This document shows positions 1,858 to 50,186 of a stretch of 64,000 bases of DNA, in pieces. Source of the DNA: Candidatus Undinarchaeota archaeon (GTDB lineage Archaea; Undinarchaeota; Undinarchaeia; Undinarchaeales; JALTGF01); the NCBI GenBank assembly GCA_964574035.1, contig CAZNLD010000003.1, forward strand, positions 15,485-79,484. The letters are read 5' to 3'. The position numbers and the translations under genes are program-made. The notes beneath the pieces were generated by a model. That model was not told the DNA's origin and did no database searches. It saw only the letters and a list, made by a program, of their open reading frames with translations. Every line of letters starts with the position of its first letter. Within the stretch, counting starts at the first letter, position 1.

Positions 1858-2832
1858 TTATCTACTTTGTTTTGATGCCAGACTTACATAAGTTATATCC
1901 GGCTCTTTCGGTTTAGGTGCTCTTAATCCCGGTCTTATTCTAACCAATCTTTTTGTTGAGCCGGGAACTGAGCCCTTTAATGCTATGAAATTATTTTTAA
2001 CCTTACCATAATTTACAAAACCACTTTTAGGAGTTATCTTTTTTCCGTCTTCTCCGAGCTTTACAACCCACTTGTTAAATTCTGTTCTTGTATGGAATCC
2101 TTTCTGCCCTGCCATTGGAACAGTCCATCTAGTTTCAGAACGTCTGTCTCCTAGAGTTCCGACATGTCTCTTTTTTCCTACTCTCTGTTTTCTCTTCAGC
2201 ATTTTAATGCCAAACCTTTTAACGGGTCCCTGCGTTCCTTTCCCTTTAGTAACAGCTGAAACATCAATATATTCGCCTTCTTTGAAAATATCAATAATTT
2301 TAATCTCTTTTCCAAGAATTTCCTTGGCATATTTCAGCTGGTCCTCAAACGTTTCTCCTCCTACTGCTATTTCAAAAATTTCCGGCTTTTTCTTGCCTAT
2401 TGCCTGGTCGGGTTTTGTATGAACGACTACTGAAACAAAATCTCCTTTCAATTCTTTTTCTTTAGCTTCTTTTTTTGGCAGAGAAATTTTTCTTCCAAGT
2501 AATTTTTTTGAATTTTTTGGAAGAGAAGCTGAAAATTCACCCGAAAGTTGATGTCCGTTGTTGGTTTTCTTATATGCTCTTATAGAAATAGGAACAATTG
2601 GCGGACAGTCAAGAACTGTTATCGGCGTGAAAACCTCTTTGCCGGAAGTAGAAGTATCTTTTGAAGTATCTTTGATTAGCATGTGAGTCATGCCTGCTTT
2701 GTAGCCGGCAAACCCAAGAAGTTTTGTCTCAGAAGAAGAAGGCCAAGTCCTTACTCTAGGATAATCTCTTTTAGCCCGTTTCCTCGGACTGAATGCCATA
2801 GATCCTGCTCGTGATTTATGTTTCCTTGCCAT
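1858..2832 (-). CDS. rpl3: 50S ribosomal protein uL3
   Basis: 324 aa with archaeal L3 motifs (FAGYKAGMTHM, VTKGKGTQGPVKRFG). First gene of the operon. Confidence 0.95.
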   Translation of the reverse strand: MARKHKSRAGSMAFSPRKRAKRDYPRVRTWPSSSETKLLGFAGYKAGMTHMLIKDTSKDTSTSGKEVFTPITVLDCPPIVPISIRAYKKTNNGHQLSGEFSASLPKNSKKLLGRKISLPKKEAKEKELKGDFVSVVVHTKPDQAIGKKKPEIFEIAVGGETFEDQLKYAKEILGKEIKIIDIFKEGEYIDVSAVTKGKGTQGPVKRFGIKMLKRKQRVGKKRHVGTLGDRRSETRWTVPMAGQKGFHTRTEFNKWVVKLGEDGKKITPKSGFVNYGKVKNNFIALKGSVPGSTKRLVRIRPGLRAPKPKEPDITYVSLASKQSR

Positions 2833-2878
2833 GTTATTGGAGTGCTAGTTATATTGACTGCGATCTCCTCCCTGATAA

Positions 2879-2964
2879 CAATCACCCCGTGTGGCAGACA
2901 TAAGCCAGCGTAGAAAAAGCTACGCCGTGGCCCGGTCGCCCGGTTCGCCGCCAGAGGGCAATTG
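2879..2964 (-). promoter_or_regulatory. GC-rich structured RNA element (three-way junction) in the leader of the rpl3 operon
   Basis: 54 of 86 nt are G/C in an AT-rich genome. The minus-strand RNA folds as CAAUUGCCC/GGGUGAUUG (9 bp), UGGCGG/CUGCCA (6 bp), CCGG-GCGA-CCGG (a GNRA-capped hairpin) and GCCA(CG)GCGUAG-CUUUUU-CUACGCUGGC. It lies between an A/T-rich TATA-like tract (about 2991-3016) and the rpl3 ATG (2832). Confidence 0.5.
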
Positions 2965-3036
2965 ATTTTCACACATAAGTGTGCGTGGCATTATATATAT
3001 TATATATGCTTTATAAGGGTTTCTGTCTGCGTTCTC

Positions 3037-3387
3037 TTAAAGAAATTGCAGCGCCAAAATATTTCCAAGTTTGTATGCTCCTGCTGTTATTGCAAAACCA
3101 ATAACTACAATGAAACAGGCCCATCCTACAAGATATGGAAGCCTCTGATATCCAAACGGAAGATAAGCTTTATCCTTCTTTTTTGCAGATTTATCTCTGA
3201 AAAAATAGAGAATTAAAACAAATGCCAGAAAAACACCGGATGAAATTATTACAAGCCAGCCGAAAAGATAGATAATCCATTTATAAAGATGATTAAGAGT
3301 AAAGAAATCATCCCAGCCGGAAACATATAATGATGTTCTTATACTCATTGAAACTAAATAAGAAAGACAGGTTAAATAATTTCTCAT
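3037..3387 (-). CDS. small integral membrane protein (3-4 predicted TM helices), function unknown
   Basis: 116 aa, strongly hydrophobic segments. ATGA overlap with the upstream 425-aa ORF suggests co-translation. Confidence 0.6.
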   Translation of the reverse strand: MRNYLTCLSYLVSMSIRTSLYVSGWDDFFTLNHLYKWIIYLFGWLVIISSGVFLAFVLILYFFRDKSAKKKDKAYLPFGYQRLPYLVGWACFIVVIGFAITAGAYKLGNILALQFL

Positions 3388-4661
3388 TTAAAGTGTTTCT
3401 TATAAAAGAGCCTGAGCCATCTTGAATGCCGCCTCGATTCTTCCAAAGCCAGATATCCCGAAACGGCCAAAATTCCAACGACAGGGCCTGCAACAAGAAG
3501 ACTGGCGATTAAGCCGCTCACTGCAGCAACATTTAAAAGGATATCCAATTGTTTCTTTTTCTTTAAACCCAAGACTTCTCTGTCTCTCTCACTAATATGA
3601 TAAATAAACTTGCTGACCCTTTTAAAATAAGTCTTGGGATACTTCATTCCAAAATAGTTTTCAAGTATATTGTAAATTATGTTTTCAACAGAATAATATT
3701 GCTTTTTCTTTTCCCGAATACCCATTATTTCATATTTTTCATCAAACTCTTTTATGGCAATTGAAATTTTTGCCAAATCTTTGTAAAAATTTGTTCTATT
3801 CCTTTCGCTTATTATAGAGTCCATGAATTTACTATTTAAATCAATGCCTGACTCTTGAATAAGCTCCCTGGCAGCGTTAATGAAATAATATTTTTCATCC
3901 TTTCCTTGATGCTCTTCCGCCCATTTGCTCCAGCTCTCCTTTTTCTTCCACCGCTTTTCTATTTCAGCCGCTCTCCCTGTAAGAAGGACCTCAAGAGCTT
4001 CTAGAAAGGGCCTATATACGCCTTCTTCAGGTTTAAATCCTTTTAAAAAAGCATACAAGAATGGCAGGGAAATTCGATTTACATCAACATAGACCTTTTC
4101 CTTGTAGCCTATCTTGGAAAGCTTATGCTTTAGATATAAAGAAGCCTTGTCCCCATAAGTATTAATGGATAGGTCCACTATTGCTAAAATAGGTATTGAA
4201 CCCCCAATAATAAACTCCGCGCCGGTTCTGGCTTCGCCTATAAATAAAGTATAGATGTCATCTCCGCCTAGTGTAAGCTTCCTTACTACCAAAGACAAAT
4301 CCTCTGCAACCTCCCCGACTTCAGTAGCCTCTAATAAATCTTCTTGAATCTCCCCCTTGGATTTTTTCTCAAGAAAATTTCTAACGTCCTCACCTACTTT
4401 GATTCTTAAAACTTCACTGTCGTACTTAAGTTCTCTTAAAATTTTCAAAAAACTTTTTCTTTTGAGAATTTCAGGATCAGTAAGCCTGATAACAAAGCCC
4501 GTCATCTTCTCAAAATCCTTTGCAGTCTCATGTAATTCTTTTATAGTTTCTTCTGCGGGCAGTTTTTCTTCTTCCCTGTGCTTTTCAGCTATACTTTTCT
4601 TCAGCTTCCTAACTTGTTTCTCATGTTCTTCCTTCTTTCCAGCAAAATCTGAAGAGGACAT
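3384..4661 (-). CDS. hypothetical protein, charged helical N-terminus and C-terminal membrane anchor
   Basis: 425 aa, ATG start. C-terminal hydrophobic stretch LLNVAAVSGLIASLLVAGPVVGILAVSGYLAL. I recognise no family motif. Confidence 0.65.
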   Translation of the reverse strand: MSSSDFAGKKEEHEKQVRKLKKSIAEKHREEEKLPAEETIKELHETAKDFEKMTGFVIRLTDPEILKRKSFLKILRELKYDSEVLRIKVGEDVRNFLEKKSKGEIQEDLLEATEVGEVAEDLSLVVRKLTLGGDDIYTLFIGEARTGAEFIIGGSIPILAIVDLSINTYGDKASLYLKHKLSKIGYKEKVYVDVNRISLPFLYAFLKGFKPEEGVYRPFLEALEVLLTGRAAEIEKRWKKKESWSKWAEEHQGKDEKYYFINAARELIQESGIDLNSKFMDSIISERNRTNFYKDLAKISIAIKEFDEKYEIMGIREKKKQYYSVENIIYNILENYFGMKYPKTYFKRVSKFIYHISERDREVLGLKKKKQLDILLNVAAVSGLIASLLVAGPVVGILAVSGYLALEESRRHSRWLRLFYKKHFK

Positions 4662-4715
4662 ACAAAAGTAGTGGACTAGTTAAAATATAATCTTTTTGGA
4701 ACGCCTTTGAAACAC

Positions 4716-4946
4716 TTATTTTAATTTCTCAGCAACTTTTCCAATCCATAAAGTTATTATTACAGCTAAAACGGTAGCAAGAACTGCATAGCTGAGCATT
4801 GCAGGAATATGATCAGAATTTTCAAAAACTTTATTGAAAACTGCTTTTATTGCATCATTCCAGGCAAGAGCTGCAACCAGTCCGAATGCTGCTGTAACAA
4901 GGGTTGACATTTTTTCAACTATTTCTCTCTTTAATTTTTTTCTCAT
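4716..4946 (-). CDS. small two-TM membrane protein (DUF5654-like)
   Basis: 76 aa with two hydrophobic helices and the motif AWNDAIKAVF, which I recall from a small archaeal/bacterial membrane protein family. The family assignment is from memory only. Confidence 0.5.
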   Translation of the reverse strand: MRKKLKREIVEKMSTLVTAAFGLVAALAWNDAIKAVFNKVFENSDHIPAMLSYAVLATVLAVIITLWIGKVAEKLK

Positions 4947-5033
4947 GAAACTAGATAAGAAGTCTCTGTTTTTAATGATTGCGCAGTCAGTTTTTCAGTA
5001 ATTTATTTAAAGAGAAGTGGTTTAAAGATTGAT

Positions 5034-13233: not shown

Positions 13234-13539
13234 ATGGAACTAATTAAAATTGAACCGAGAAGAGGTTCAGCAGAAACAGACGGACTTACTATCAAATTTA
13301 AGGCAAATATTGAAGACATTCCTCTAGAAATCGAAGTATACAGAGATATTGAATTAAAAAGAGAAAAAATAGTTGAAATACTTAACAAGAAAAAACATCT
13401 TTTTGGAATAAAAGCAGATAAAAATTTATGGACGAATCTTAAGAAAAAAGATATTGAAAAATTTTATGCAGAAATTATTATGATTGTAAAAAGAAAAGAA
13501 ATATCGGTTGGCAAAGCATACATTAAAAGAGAATCTTAA
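13234..13539 (+). CDS. hypothetical protein
   Basis: 101 aa ORF with ATG start, no motif recognised. Confidence 0.5.
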   Translation: MELIKIEPRRGSAETDGLTIKFKANIEDIPLEIEVYRDIELKREKIVEILNKKKHLFGIKADKNLWTNLKKKDIEKFYAEIIMIVKRKEISVGKAYIKRES

Positions 13540-13541
13540 AA

Positions 13542-13549
13542 CTTAAATA
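13542..13549 (+). promoter_or_regulatory. TATA-like box positioned for a leaderless transcript starting at the Cys mini-ORF
   Basis: CTTAAATA is centred about 26 nt upstream of the ATG at 13572, which is the usual archaeal TATA-to-TSS spacing. Confidence 0.35.
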
Positions 13550-13571
13550 GAAACAAATTCATATTAACACT

Positions 13572-13601
13572 ATGAAATCAGAACTATGCTGTTGTTGTTA
13601 G
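13572..13601 (+). CDS. candidate leader peptide MKSELCCCC (four tandem Cys codons) upstream of tRNA-Cys/cysS
   Basis: ATG AAA TCA GAA CTA TGC TGT TGT TGT TAG read directly from the sequence. It lies about 80 nt before tRNA-Cys(GCA) and is embedded in alternative hairpins. Confidence 0.4.
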   Translation: MKSELCCCC

Positions 13602-13681
13602 AAAAGATTGCATAGTCCTATTTCGGTTCTCTTAAATTTCTTTGAAGTGCTACGAGAACAGCCGAAGGTTTCATCAAAACA

Positions 13682-13754
13682 GCAGAGGTGGCGGAATCCG
13701 GTTACGCGCGCGGCTGCAAACCGCGATATCAGGGTTCAAATCCCTGCCTCTGCT
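13682..13754 (+). tRNA. tRNA-Cys (anticodon GCA)
   Basis: Acceptor GCAGAGG/CCTCTGC; D arm GCG-GAATCCGGTTA-CGC; anticodon arm CGCGG-CT GCA AA-CCGCG; T arm CAGGG-TTCAAAT-CCCTG; discriminator T. No encoded CCA. Confidence 0.93.
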
Positions 13755-13839
13755 TCAAACATAGTAAATGGTTAATGGTTAATAGTAAATGGTAGATAGC
13801 AAGTAATAAAACCAAACAAATAATACAGAATATATTGAA

Positions 13840-15240
13840 ATGCCTTTAAAACTCTATAATACCCTAACAAAGAAAAAAGAAGAATTCAAGCCGATTAAAG
13901 ATAAAAAGGTAAAACTTTACACCTGCGGTCCGACTGTTTACGATTATGCGCATATAGGGAATTTCAGAACATACATTTTTCAGGATATTTTGAAAAGGTA
14001 TCTTGAATACAAAGGCTACGATGTAAAACAAGTAATGAATATTACAGATATAGACGACAAAACAATAAAACGATCTCAGGAAAAGGGAGTTAAACTGGAA
14101 AAATATACTGAAAAGTACACAAAGGCTTTTTTTGAAGATATGAAAACACTGAATATAAAACCAGCTGATGTTTACCCAAAAGCCACTGAGACTGTTGATG
14201 AAATGATTGAGCTTGTTAAGAAATTAATGGATAAAGGTTTTGCATATAAAACAGAAGATGGGATTTATTTCAATATTAAGAAGTTTGATGAGTACGGGAA
14301 GCTTTCCGGATTAAAAATTGAAGAATTAAAAGAAGGCGCTAGAGTTAAAACACAGGAATATGACAAAGAAAATGCAAAAGATTTCGCCCTGTGGAAATTC
14401 TGGAAACCTGCAGACGGAGATAACTTTTTTGAAACTGAAATAGGAAAAGGAAGACCAGGCTGGCATATAGAATGCTCTGCAATGTCCATGAAACACTTGG
14501 GAGAAACTATTGACATGCATACAGGAGGGGTTGACTTAATTTTCCCCCATCATGAAAATGAAATTGCTCAGTCAGAAGGAGCAACTGGCAAGCATTTCGT
14601 TAAATACTGGCTCCACTGCGAACATTTACTTGTTGAAAATAAAAAGATGTCAAAATCACTAGGTAATTTCTATACTTTAAGAGACTTGCTGGATAAAGGA
14701 TACGACCCAAAAGCAATTAGGTATACTTTAATGGCTTCTCACTACAGACAGCAGCAAAACTTTTCACTTAAGGAGCTTGAAGCGGCGGATAAAACTGTAA
14801 ACAGACTGTTTGAATTTGAAGACAGATTAAAGGAAGCTGATGGTAAAAAAACAGACATATCTAAAATAATTGAAAAAACAAAAAAGAAATTTGAATCTGA
14901 AATGGATGATAATTTGAATATAAGTGAAGCTCTTGCTTCTGTTTTTAATTTCATGAAAGAAGTAAATAAATTACTGGATAAAGGAAAAATCAGCAGTAAA
15001 AATGCTGAAGAACTTCTTAATACACTTTATAATTTTGACAAAGTCCTCGGCATCTTAGAGATGGAAAAGGAAAAAGTTGGAAAAGAAAAGAAAAAGAAAA
15101 TAGAAAAACTATTGAAAGAAAGAGAAAAAGCAAGGAAAGAAAAGAATTTTGAAAAAGCAGATGAGATAAGAGAAGAATTAAAAGAAATGGGAATTGAAGT
15201 TAAAGATACTGAAAAAGGACCTAAATGGAAGGTGATATAA
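13840..15240 (+). CDS. cysS: cysteinyl-tRNA synthetase (class I)
   Basis: 466 aa with the HIGH-type motif YDYAHIGNFR, the KMSKS motif KMSKSLGN, and WHIECSAM and HHENEIAQSE motifs typical of CysRS. Confidence 0.97.
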   Translation: MPLKLYNTLTKKKEEFKPIKDKKVKLYTCGPTVYDYAHIGNFRTYIFQDILKRYLEYKGYDVKQVMNITDIDDKTIKRSQEKGVKLEKYTEKYTKAFFEDMKTLNIKPADVYPKATETVDEMIELVKKLMDKGFAYKTEDGIYFNIKKFDEYGKLSGLKIEELKEGARVKTQEYDKENAKDFALWKFWKPADGDNFFETEIGKGRPGWHIECSAMSMKHLGETIDMHTGGVDLIFPHHENEIAQSEGATGKHFVKYWLHCEHLLVENKKMSKSLGNFYTLRDLLDKGYDPKAIRYTLMASHYRQQQNFSLKELEAADKTVNRLFEFEDRLKEADGKKTDISKIIEKTKKKFESEMDDNLNISEALASVFNFMKEVNKLLDKGKISSKNAEELLNTLYNFDKVLGILEMEKEKVGKEKKKKIEKLLKEREKARKEKNFEKADEIREELKEMGIEVKDTEKGPKWKVI

Positions 15241-15305
15241 TGGATCCAAAGAAAAATAAAGAAAAGAAGAAAGATAAGAAAAAATCATGCTGTGGTTGCT
15301 GCTAA
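15240..15305 (+). CDS. candidate 21-aa micro-ORF MDPKKNKEKKKDKKKSCCGCC overlapping the cysS stop (TAATG)
   Basis: Read directly: ATG at 15240 shares its A with the cysS TAA. A polybasic stretch is followed by TCA TGC TGT GGT TGC TGC TAA. Confidence 0.3.
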   Translation: MDPKKNKEKKKDKKKSCCGCC

Positions 15306-50088: not shown

Positions 50089-50186
50089 CCCCCGATAGCT
50101 CAACGGCAGAGCGGCCGGCTGTAGCTGGAGAAAATCTTCTTCCAGTAGAAACCGGCAGGTTCCAGGTTCAAATCCCGGTCGGGGGA
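50089..50186 (+). tRNA. tRNA-Tyr (anticodon GUA) with a 26-nt canonical intron
   Basis: CCCCCGA-TA-GCTC-AACGGCA-GAGC-G-GCCGG-CT GTA G [intron 50125-50150] A-CCGGC-AGGTT-CCAGG-TTCAAAT-CCCGG-TCGGGGG-A. It has the C1:G72 pair typical of archaeal tRNA-Tyr and one A:C mismatch in the T stem. A T-run follows. Confidence 0.85.

Follow-up and report, generated by a model that had tools for sequence, protein, structure and literature searches.

The window analysed here, a stretch of 64,000 nucleotides (nt) from the genome of a Candidatus Undinarchaeota archaeon (contig CAZNLD010000003.1), contains a tRNA-Cys(GCA) gene followed by cysS, the gene of the cysteinyl-tRNA synthetase (CysRS), whose closest homologues carry the name cysteine--tRNA ligase. 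Upstream of this pair lies a mini-open reading frame (mini-ORF) of nine codons, which closes on four tandem Cys codons and a stop and ends 80 nt 5' of the tRNA-Cys gene. By direct reading, exactly 22 nt separate the TATA box CTTAAATA from the ATG of the mini-ORF, and the start codon coincides with the predicted transcription start, with T at -1 and A at +1. The mini-ORF, the TATA box, the arms of the hairpins, the tRNA-Cys and cysS had been pointed out in an earlier note made from the sequence alone, and all of them were recovered (Table 1).

Leaderless geometry is the norm for the first genes in the window, and the mini-ORF has exactly such geometry. TATA-like 8-mers of the window genes peak at 19-24 nt before the ATG, with 21 matches in these six positions vs about 0.6 per position nearer to the ATG, and this peak at leaderless gaps suggests that leaderless mRNAs are common in the genome. 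The promoter geometry of the mini-ORF agrees with the leaderless transcript proposed in the earlier note. Cysteine accounts for 0.88% of the codons of the window genes, which favour TGC over TGT (96 vs 60), yet TGT occupies three of the four positions of the mini-ORF Cys run. No analogous mini-ORF for another amino acid was found at a promoter-like position in the intergenic regions of the window.

Short Cys-run ORFs, which the earlier note had suggested to look for at related tRNA-Cys/cysS loci, recur in six to seven DPANN lineages. Eight leaders were compared, those of the window, L001, L081, L082, L005, L113, L024 and L076. The CysRS of L001 (from a Candidatus Undinarchaeales metagenome-assembled genome, MAG), of L081 and of L082/L083 are respectively 87%, 82% and 68% identical to that of the window, which shows 60-64% identity with other DPANN, including Undinarchaeota and MAGs labelled Pacearchaeota or Aenigmatarchaeota; over all leader-bearing lineages this identity extends from 47 to 87%. 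Some MAG taxon labels look unreliable (e.g. “Methanosarcinales” for L005 and L076). The common design consists of a TATA box, a gap of 22-23 nt, a start codon after a pyrimidine, three to seven variable codons, three to five Cys codons with a stop right behind them, and a T-rich tract. A perfect TATA 8-mer stands 22-23 nt before the start codon in seven of the eight leaders (CTTAAATA at the identical gap in L001, L081 and L024; TTTAAATA or TTTAAAAA at a gap of 22-23 in L005, L113 and L076), and a pyrimidine at -1 with a purine at +1, a stop directly after the Cys run and a T-rich sequence behind the stop, with T about twice as abundant as A, are found in all eight. The mini-ORFs have 8-11 codons, with 3-5 consecutive Cys codons in every case, and the distant leaders (L005, L113, L024 and L076) keep the same design though their sequence similarity is gone.

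Across lineages the Cys codons vary only between TGT and TGC, and the change of the preceding CTA to CTG is also synonymous. The N-terminal codons 2-4 change amino acid (K/N, S/L, E/N), and the peptides of L005, L113 and L024 are quite different. Such a pattern of a free N-terminus and a fixed Cys run fits what a sensor ORF would be expected to show. Between the window and L001, the mini-ORF is identical over 30/30 nt, the rest of the leader is 86% identical, the tRNA 100%, the spacer between TATA and ATG 56%, and the third positions of conserved cysS codons, which represent neutral sites, 70%.

Table 1. Features of the Cys-codon leader and downstream genes in the window, and mini-ORFs of the related leaders
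Feature	Positions	Strand	Description
TATA box CTTAAATA	13542-13549	+	8/8 vs reference archaeal TATA 8-mer
Leaderless mini-ORF MKSELCCCC-stop	13572-13601	+	ATG AAA TCA GAA CTA TGC TGT TGT TGT TAG
Closing stem	13572-13674	+	AUGAAAUC 13572-13579 / GGUUUCAU 13667-13674, includes ATGAAA 13572-13577 / TTTCAT 13669-13674
Hairpin 1	13583-13616	+	ACTATGC 13583-13589 / GCATAGT 13610-13616; remaining Cys codons and stop in loop
Four tandem Cys codons	13587-13598	+	TGC TGT TGT TGT; proposed sensing codons
CATAGTC motif	13611-13617	+	consensus CATWGKY
Hairpin 2	13622-13666	+	TTCGGTTCTC 13622-13631 / GAGAACAGCCGAA 13654-13666; TTTCTTT 13637-13643 in loop
tRNA-Cys(GCA)	13682-13754	+	ARAGORN; Rfam tRNA model 63.6 bits
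cysS (cysteinyl-tRNA synthetase)	13840-15240	+	466-aa ORF; tRNA-synt_1e and CysS_C domains
L001 mini-ORF MKSELCCCC-stop			identical to window; 22 nt after same TATA; before tRNA-Cys-cysS
L081 mini-ORF MNSNLCCCC-stop			ATG AAC TCA AAC CTG TGC TGT TGT TGC TAG; 22 nt after CTTAAATA; before tRNA-Cys-cysS
L082/L083 mini-ORF MKLNLCCCC-stop			ATG AAA TTA AAC CTG TGC TGT TGT TGC TAG; before tRNA-Cys-cysK-cysS
L005 mini-ORF MKHTLCCC-stop			before cysK-cysS
L113 mini-ORF MIYNTKFCCC-stop			before cysK-cysS
L024 mini-ORF MSNTHCCCCC-stop			before LAGLIDADG endonuclease, cysE (serine O-acetyltransferase), SAM hydroxide adenosyltransferase (SAM_HAT), cysS
L076 mini-ORF VKKQNHLNCCC-stop			GTG start; before tRNA-Cys-cysS

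At 37% GC the genome is rich in AT and contains many short ORFs, which would be in favour of a chance ORF, or of a TGT microsatellite, in AT-rich intergenic DNA. This explanation is effectively refuted by the comparison. Tandem Repeats Finder called no tandem repeat or microsatellite in the TGT run, which is stable at four Cys codons in the window, L001, L081 and L082 and does not behave as the length-variable microsatellite that the earlier note had named as a refuting case, and the ORF is conserved with its promoter spacing in distant lineages. Moreover, a scan of both strands of all fetched loci (1.75 Mb) for an ATG, at most 12 codons, at least 3 Cys codons and a stop gave 12 matches, compared with an expectation of 0.35 per 1.75 Mb in block shuffles. 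Ten of them, located before cysteine genes, are the leader element itself (the window, its six distinct relatives L001, L081, L082/L083, L005 and L024, and L085-L087, which represent the window's own organism), vs two background matches inside unrelated genes, that is an observed chance frequency of about 1 per Mb. These two were rejected, MHLCCC-stop of L059 being located inside a called ORF and MNFEENWSNPCCC-stop of L063 having no cysteine-gene context. A metagenome scan for CTATGCAAN{3,10}YTARCARCARCARCA, i.e. four Cys codons, a stop and the 3' arm of hairpin 1, gave 22 matches and no new member; they were judged to be chance matches because none has an ATG, a TATA or a tRNA context. A CysRS scan of viral contigs found nothing, and the element was not found in the 450 nt upstream of cysS at the bacterial loci among L001-L080. 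In the +2 frame, the Cys run of the window also reads MLLLLEKIA-stop (13586-13615, + strand), ending at the TAG within GCATAG, and comparable poly-Leu frames were read by eye in L082, L005 and L076. As a real ORF this frame was rejected, its starts being internal and not conserved (ATG, GTG, TTG or none), and it is considered a by-product of the UGU repeat.

Each of the eight leaders precedes, in the same orientation, a gene set ending in cysS. The gene directly downstream is a tRNA in five of the eight, and no tRNA is present at L005, L113 and L024. Among the other genes of these sets, cysK scored above the cut-off of TIGR01136, and cysE above that of NF041874, with 210.3 vs a cut-off of 210.65 for TIGR01172. 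The element is absent before lone cysK genes (L114, L117-L119) and before cysS of Nop5-fibrillarin operons (L111, L112). On the whole, these comparative data strongly favour a putative cysteine-related cis-regulatory leader ORF, and the regulatory leader announced in the earlier note is borne out in so far as Cys run, stop, start codon and TATA spacing are kept before cysteine genes at 47-87% CysRS identity. Because relatives keep the ORF, always before cysteine genes, it probably senses cysteine supply, and a role of the mini-ORF as a sensor of Cys-tRNA appears likely. That it would be translated is suggested by its start at the predicted first base of the transcript, by the frame kept through the Cys run to the stop and by the free N-terminus, as well as by a run that varies only between T and C at third positions keeping Cys and by neighbours that make, carry or charge cysteine.

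The peptide itself could also be the functional product. As a Cys-rich micropeptide (e.g. metal- or thiol-binding), only incidentally linked to cysteine genes, it would come from what looks like a small gene in its own right, with a promoter of its own and a T-rich tract behind the stop, and other small Lys/Cys-rich ORFs occur nearby in the clade (window 15240-15305, L004 4227, L115 2203). We consider this explanation improbable, as the peptides have only 8-11 residues with the C-terminal Cys run as their sole common feature, their N-termini are unrelated across lineages, and their same-strand placement upstream of cysS-containing sets would be left unexplained. The 30/30 nt shared with L001 include the synonymous sites, so that the identity goes beyond selection at the peptide level.

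The leader proper (13572-13681, 110 nt) is predicted to adopt a Y-shaped fold of -27.0 kcal/mol (z = -2.59; 2/200 shuffles fold as well), made up of the closing stem and hairpins 1 and 2. The longer segment 13560-13700, whose folding had been suggested in the earlier note, is unremarkable (z = -0.74). Hairpin 1 keeps its seven core pairs in the window, L001, L081 and L082, with a change of A13583-U13616 to C-G on both sides and a change of one further pair from A-U to G-U; the pairing reaches 89% in register vs 18-44% when slid. This covariation is suggestive, as it comes from four sequences and a DNA palindrome would covary likewise. The Leu-Cys codons fall within hairpin 1, which therefore has to open when a ribosome occupies the Cys run. 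Hairpin 1 is absent in L005, L113, L024 and L076, and the extension of its stem by GAAAT/ATTTC, previously proposed together with it, is not conserved in L001 or L081 and is absent from the free and masked minimum free energy (MFE) folds. The upper part of hairpin 2 holds the T-rich tract CTTAAATTTCTTTG (13631-13644), within which TTTC is invariant in the four aligned leaders; a hairpin at this position is kept in L001 and L081 and not in L082 or beyond. The closing stem, which is part of the MFE folds of the window and L001, would sequester the start codon of the finished leader, and in L081 an insertion has moved its TTTCAT away. When the first 30 or 42 nt of leader plus tRNA are masked, hairpin 1 and the closing stem disappear. 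The CATWGKY motif, mostly CATAGTC, follows the stop at 9-10 nt in six of the eight leaders, with a shorter distance of 5 nt in L024, and occurs even in lineages that lack hairpin 1, where pairing with the Leu-Cys codons is impossible (equivalents in L001, L081, L082, L005, L076 and L024).

These structures raise the question of an untranslated RNA or DNA element in which the ORF would be incidental, such as a pre-tRNA-Cys 5' leader (which RNase P would release as a stable Y-shaped RNA), a binding site for CysRS or tRNA-Cys (cf. ThrRS operators and T-boxes) or an inverted-repeat operator GAACTATGC...GCATAGTCC to which a transcription factor would bind. Besides the better folding of the 110-nt leader than of its shuffles, such an element would account for a mini-ORF identical between the window and L001 at the nucleotide and not merely the peptide level, for a hairpin 1 covariation equally compatible with a DNA palindrome and for a CATAGTC motif conserved with no obvious coding reason. 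It is nevertheless very unlikely, since the structure is not conserved beyond the Undinarchaeales/L082 group whereas the features of the ORF, which neither a structural RNA nor a DNA operator would require, are. An in-frame stop right after the run in six lineages has a chance of the order of (3/64)^6, the variation of the run is limited to third positions keeping Cys, and the element precedes protein genes where a tRNA is lacking (L005, L113, L024). In addition, an Rfam cmscan of 13400-13900 at E <= 10 returned only the tRNA and noise, with no T-box (RF00230). By eye, the leader contains no C box (RUGAUGA) and no D box (CUGA), and a reading as H/ACA small RNA was rejected, as an ACA triplet abuts the 5' end of the tRNA and nothing else resembles H/ACA.

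The best overall explanation, and one that we hold to be probable with moderate confidence, is therefore a leaderless leader ORF that would report the supply of charged tRNA-Cys via the ribosome. In the mechanism that we propose, the TATA box would direct the transcription start at the A of the ATG (13572), and a ribosome would take the 5'-terminal AUG and translate nine codons, the last four of them Cys, up to the stop. With ample Cys-tRNA(Cys), the ribosome would finish and depart, hairpin 1 and the closing stem at the start codon would form, and the pyrimidine- or U-rich tract would be exposed, so that transcripts would be prone to termination or cleavage ahead of the genes that follow. With scarce Cys-tRNA(Cys), the ribosome would stall on the Cys run, keep hairpin 1 open and cover RNA past the stop, and more polymerases would reach tRNA-Cys and, in relatives, cysK, cysE or cysS. 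A ribosome on the Cys codons would also keep the 5' AUG off its downstream pairing partner. Because a tRNA often comes next, the output has to operate at the level of transcription or RNA fate. The stalling and the output step, for which we suggest termination or read-through at the U-tract, possibly by way of aCPSF1/FttA, are conjectural, and conditional premature termination, the most parsimonious output, is put forward tentatively, as a possibility below an even chance. Archaeal termination is known to involve U-tracts bound by aCPSF1 (PMC8716108), and a coupled ribosome has been suggested to keep FttA away by steric hindrance (PMC11616081). In L076, L024, L113 and L005, 0-4 nt separate the stop from the start of the T-rich tract, close enough for a ribosome halted at the final Cys codons to reach it. 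For the window and L082 the distance from the stop is larger, about 18-31 nt, and hairpin 1 lies in between. The extremes among the tracts are T3CT3 (window) and T6CT4 (L005); they are weak and overlap TATA-like words.

Several observations weigh against a sensor acting through termination. Within the window, the tract is only T3CT3, weaker than many gene-end runs of T4-T8, and at 31-44 nt after the stop it is beyond the reach of a stalled ribosome. The leaders of L005, L113, L024 and L076 are nearly unstructured (-2.5 to -9.5 kcal/mol). Masking the first 30 or 42 nt as a mimic of the stalled ribosome yields no new structure and leaves hairpin 2 and the tRNA fold unchanged. In the predicted folds there is no terminator/antiterminator pair, and mutually exclusive hairpins are neither found nor conserved. 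The switch between such hairpins that the earlier note had envisaged is not supported, since hairpin 1 alone is conserved and masking reveals no alternative; its competing arm, the pairing of GCTGTTGTTG (13588-13597) with CAAAACAGC (13675-13683), is broken in L001, where the partner reads TTAAAATGC and only 2+2 bp are left. This pairing (GCUGUUGUUG/CAAAACAGC) is not conserved in L081 either, where it is irrelevant with the tRNA 288 nt away, and it is absent from the free and masked MFE folds. Moreover, several tRNA-Cys-cysS loci (L110, L011) do not have the ORF, the translation of the mini-ORF is deduced from its sequence, and the comparison rests on eight leaders only, in lineages that may share the element by descent and would then not be independent inventions.

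The same sensor ORF could also have another output, as a separate short transcript in tandem with a promoter of the downstream gene, through promoter occlusion or read-through interference, translation-dependent stability or processing of a leader-tRNA precursor, or sequestration of the 5' AUG. TATA-like 8-mers are present within leaders at leaderless distance from the next gene, TTTATATT at a gap of 23 in L024 and AATATATA at a gap of 22 in L113; in the window, CTTAAATT stands 43 nt upstream of the tRNA, and a conserved AT-rich box, AGTAATAAAACCA, precedes cysS. The TATA-like words in the leaders and the box before cysS imply that downstream genes may not depend on read-through, which also counts against the termination output, as does L081, where the tRNA, displaced by an insertion to a distance of 288 nt, comes with a TATAAAAT of its own though the mini-ORF and both hairpins are kept. 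The start codon pairs with a downstream U-rich segment ending in CAU in the window, L001, L082 and L076. Conversely, AT-rich intergenic DNA readily gives TATA-like words, and the cysK of L005, which has a Shine-Dalgarno-like GAGGT and is preceded by T6CT4, fits with a leadered, attenuated mRNA. On account of the weak tract, of the TATA-like words in the leaders and of the cysS box, the tandem-promoter arrangement is a serious alternative, although we judge this group of outputs unlikely.

Concerning the genes behind the leader, the tRNA-Cys of the window has no TATA-like 8-mer at the usual gap of 22-26 nt, in agreement with the earlier note, which had seen no convincing TATA for it; the nearest, CTTAAATT (13631-13638), matches 7/8 positions and stands 43 nt upstream. 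No T-run of 4 or more is found between tRNA-Cys and cysS (13755-13839), and the box AGTAATAAAACCA, about 25 nt before the cysS ATG, is conserved between the window and L001. AGTAATAAAACCA may therefore be a leaderless promoter of cysS, which may also receive read-through from the tRNA. The gap between tRNA-Cys and cysS contains a 7-nt tandem repeat (AATGGTT x3.9, 13767-13793). Elsewhere in the window, the Rfam model recognized a tRNA of 98 nt (50089-50186, + strand), presumably intron-containing, that ARAGORN did not report.

The location of tRNA-Cys directly 5' of cysS is common among the DPANN loci (L004 ~4447-4700; L110 ~3857-3961; L011 1670-1763), and several of these tRNA-Cys have introns (~190 nt in L004). 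In bacterial mode, ARAGORN missed several intron-bearing tRNA-Cys and called one of them “tRNA-Stop”; the tRNA-Cys of L081, with a canonical intron of 21 nt, was mis-called tRNA-Leu(CAG). In L081, the leader and tRNA-Cys are separated by an insertion of about 190 nt (1262-1455) with the inverted repeat TTTCATCAAAA / TTTTGATGAAA at its borders; TATAAAAT comes next, near the tRNA. The tRNA leader of L004 has a long inverted repeat, GACGCT...AGCGTC. Right after tRNA-Cys, L001 (4801-4912) and L076 (~4855-4955) each contain an insert of about 90-100 nt ending in a duplicate of the tRNA 3' end (GTTCAAATCCCTGCCTCTGCTT and AATCTGGGCGCGTGC, respectively), which looks like the scar of an element integrated at the 3' end of tRNA-Cys. 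In L024, the poly-Cys leader and cysE are separated by a free-standing LAGLIDADG homing-endonuclease gene (2730-3566), which gives the impression of an insertion at the junction of leader and operon.

Small Lys/Cys-rich ORFs were noticed at three places. One (MDPKKNKEKKKDKKKSCCGCC-stop, window 15240-15305, + strand) overlaps the stop of cysS (TAATG) and is absent after cysS in L001; the second (MDQKKKKSKCGCCS-stop, 4227-4271 of L004, Undinarchaeota) abuts the stop of the homologue of a 147-aa gene of the window, about 175 nt upstream of tRNA-Cys; the third (MKNKKCKCCGCNPCRYSPTCKCCKCKKEK-stop, L115 2203-2292) is located within an IscS/NifU/cysK cluster. These ORFs near cysteine genes could belong to a small protein family or be Cys-dependent ORFs of a second kind. 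In L120, cysK-cysS is preceded by a leaderless-looking ORF of 23 codons (MAKLKVNSNEIRDNLAKASCLCF-stop, 1494-1565) that begins 21 nt downstream of TTTAAAAA and leaves 10 nt up to the start of cysK. It closes on SCLCF-stop, with two separated Cys codons and no run, and was not counted as a member, being ambiguous; either degeneration from the leader or a frameshift in the assembly may explain it.

Leader-peptide attenuation is a textbook mechanism of bacteria, and classical attenuators (trpL, hisL, pheM-pheST) share with the Undinarchaeota element a short leader ORF with tandem codons of the regulated amino acid, placed before biosynthesis or aminoacyl-tRNA synthetase genes. Unlike this element, they rely on 1:2, 2:3 and 3:4 hairpins that exclude one another, together with an intrinsic terminator of the bacterial type, none of which was found here. 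T-box riboswitches (cysS and other aminoacyl-tRNA synthetase genes of Firmicutes) are also located upstream of synthetase genes and respond to tRNA charging, but they work without translation, with a single specifier codon and the conserved T-box sequence making direct contact with uncharged tRNA.

The sensing step keeps to the established logic of leader ORFs, and its direct experimental precedent is found in the polycysteine leaderless small ORFs (sORFs) of mycobacteria (Ms5788A, the “Cys ribulon”; Canestrari et al.), which were experimentally shown to be Cys-responsive attenuators (10.1101/834739). Their output is translational, the Cys tract pairing with the Shine-Dalgarno region of the next gene (10.1101/834739). 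Both systems combine a leaderless start at the start codon (here predicted from the TATA gap and the -1/+1 pyrimidine/purine), a very short ORF with a poly-Cys tract at its 3' end, a position upstream of cysteine-related operons and a proposed sensing by ribosome pausing at low Cys-tRNA. The mycobacterial sORFs are however bacterial and target sulfur-assimilation genes, whereas the present element belongs to an archaeon, has a TATA promoter, includes cysS and tRNA-Cys among its targets and often precedes a tRNA, where a ribosome-binding site is lacking; the likeness is not meant as homology in sequence. Neither the sequences nor the MFE folds showed the Cys tract to be complementary to the start region downstream, and the GAGGT region of L005 has no complement of UGUUGUUG.

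Two other bacterial leaders are found before cysS. The predicted uORFC-8-2 motif of Rhodobacterales, an upstream ORF (uORF), has two Cys codons in its first stem and an intrinsic terminator (PMC8632094). It resembles the element by its tandem-Cys uORF upstream of cysS, with Cys codons in the first stem (cf. hairpin 1), and by the proposed logic in which stalling leads to more CysRS. It differs as a bacterial prediction, in which the two Cys codons occupy about positions 14-15 of a longer uORF with a clear terminator stem and U run, whereas 3-5 Cys codons here close a leaderless ORF of 8-11 codons with no hairpin-plus-U terminator. The cysS mRNA of Deinococcus deserti begins with a 10-codon ORF containing two Cys codons, its transcription start site being mapped at the AUG (PMC4007540). 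A 5'-terminal AUG opening an ORF of about ten codons with Cys codons is thus common to both, but this leader is bacterial, has a -10 promoter and two Cys, and is directly followed by cysS with a Shine-Dalgarno sequence, and its regulation is putative. The element works like known Cys-codon leaders yet is a member of none of them, since it fails the structural features of the classical attenuators and of the mycobacterial sORFs and matches no Rfam model. The statement of the earlier note that a device built on Cys codons is not an established mechanism does not hold for bacteria (10.1101/834739, PMC8632094, PMC4007540), and stands for Archaea in that no precedent was found. Full-text literature searches for archaeal leader-peptide attenuation gave nothing relevant.

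What is new is the domain (Archaea, DPANN), the archaeal context of promoter and termination and the placement before a tRNA gene. To our knowledge, leader-peptide attenuation has not been demonstrated in any archaeon to date. Archaea couple transcription and translation, often use leaderless mRNAs and terminate via U-tracts with aCPSF1/FttA. The element could be the first ribosome-mediated amino-acid sensor in Archaea, a suggestion that we make with reserve and hold somewhat less likely than its opposite, in which a stalled ribosome would set the flow of transcripts into tRNA-Cys and, in relatives, cysK/cysE/cysS, possibly by shielding the U-rich tract from aCPSF1/FttA. A translated ORF before a tRNA gene would be unusual. 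If true, this would represent a feedback loop in which charged tRNA regulates the synthesis of its own tRNA and synthetase with no need of alternative hairpins of the bacterial type, and it bears on whether archaeal ribosomes can serve as metabolite sensors. With about 110 nt and four codons to mutate, the element is a small, sharply defined and conserved test case. Gene callers commonly apply a minimum of about 30 codons, and since ORFs of 8-11 codons are far below it, scans for mini-ORFs with amino-acid runs at leaderless distance could reveal more sensors. DPANN archaea have reduced genomes and few recognised regulators, and for this reason a regulator with no dedicated protein would suit them.

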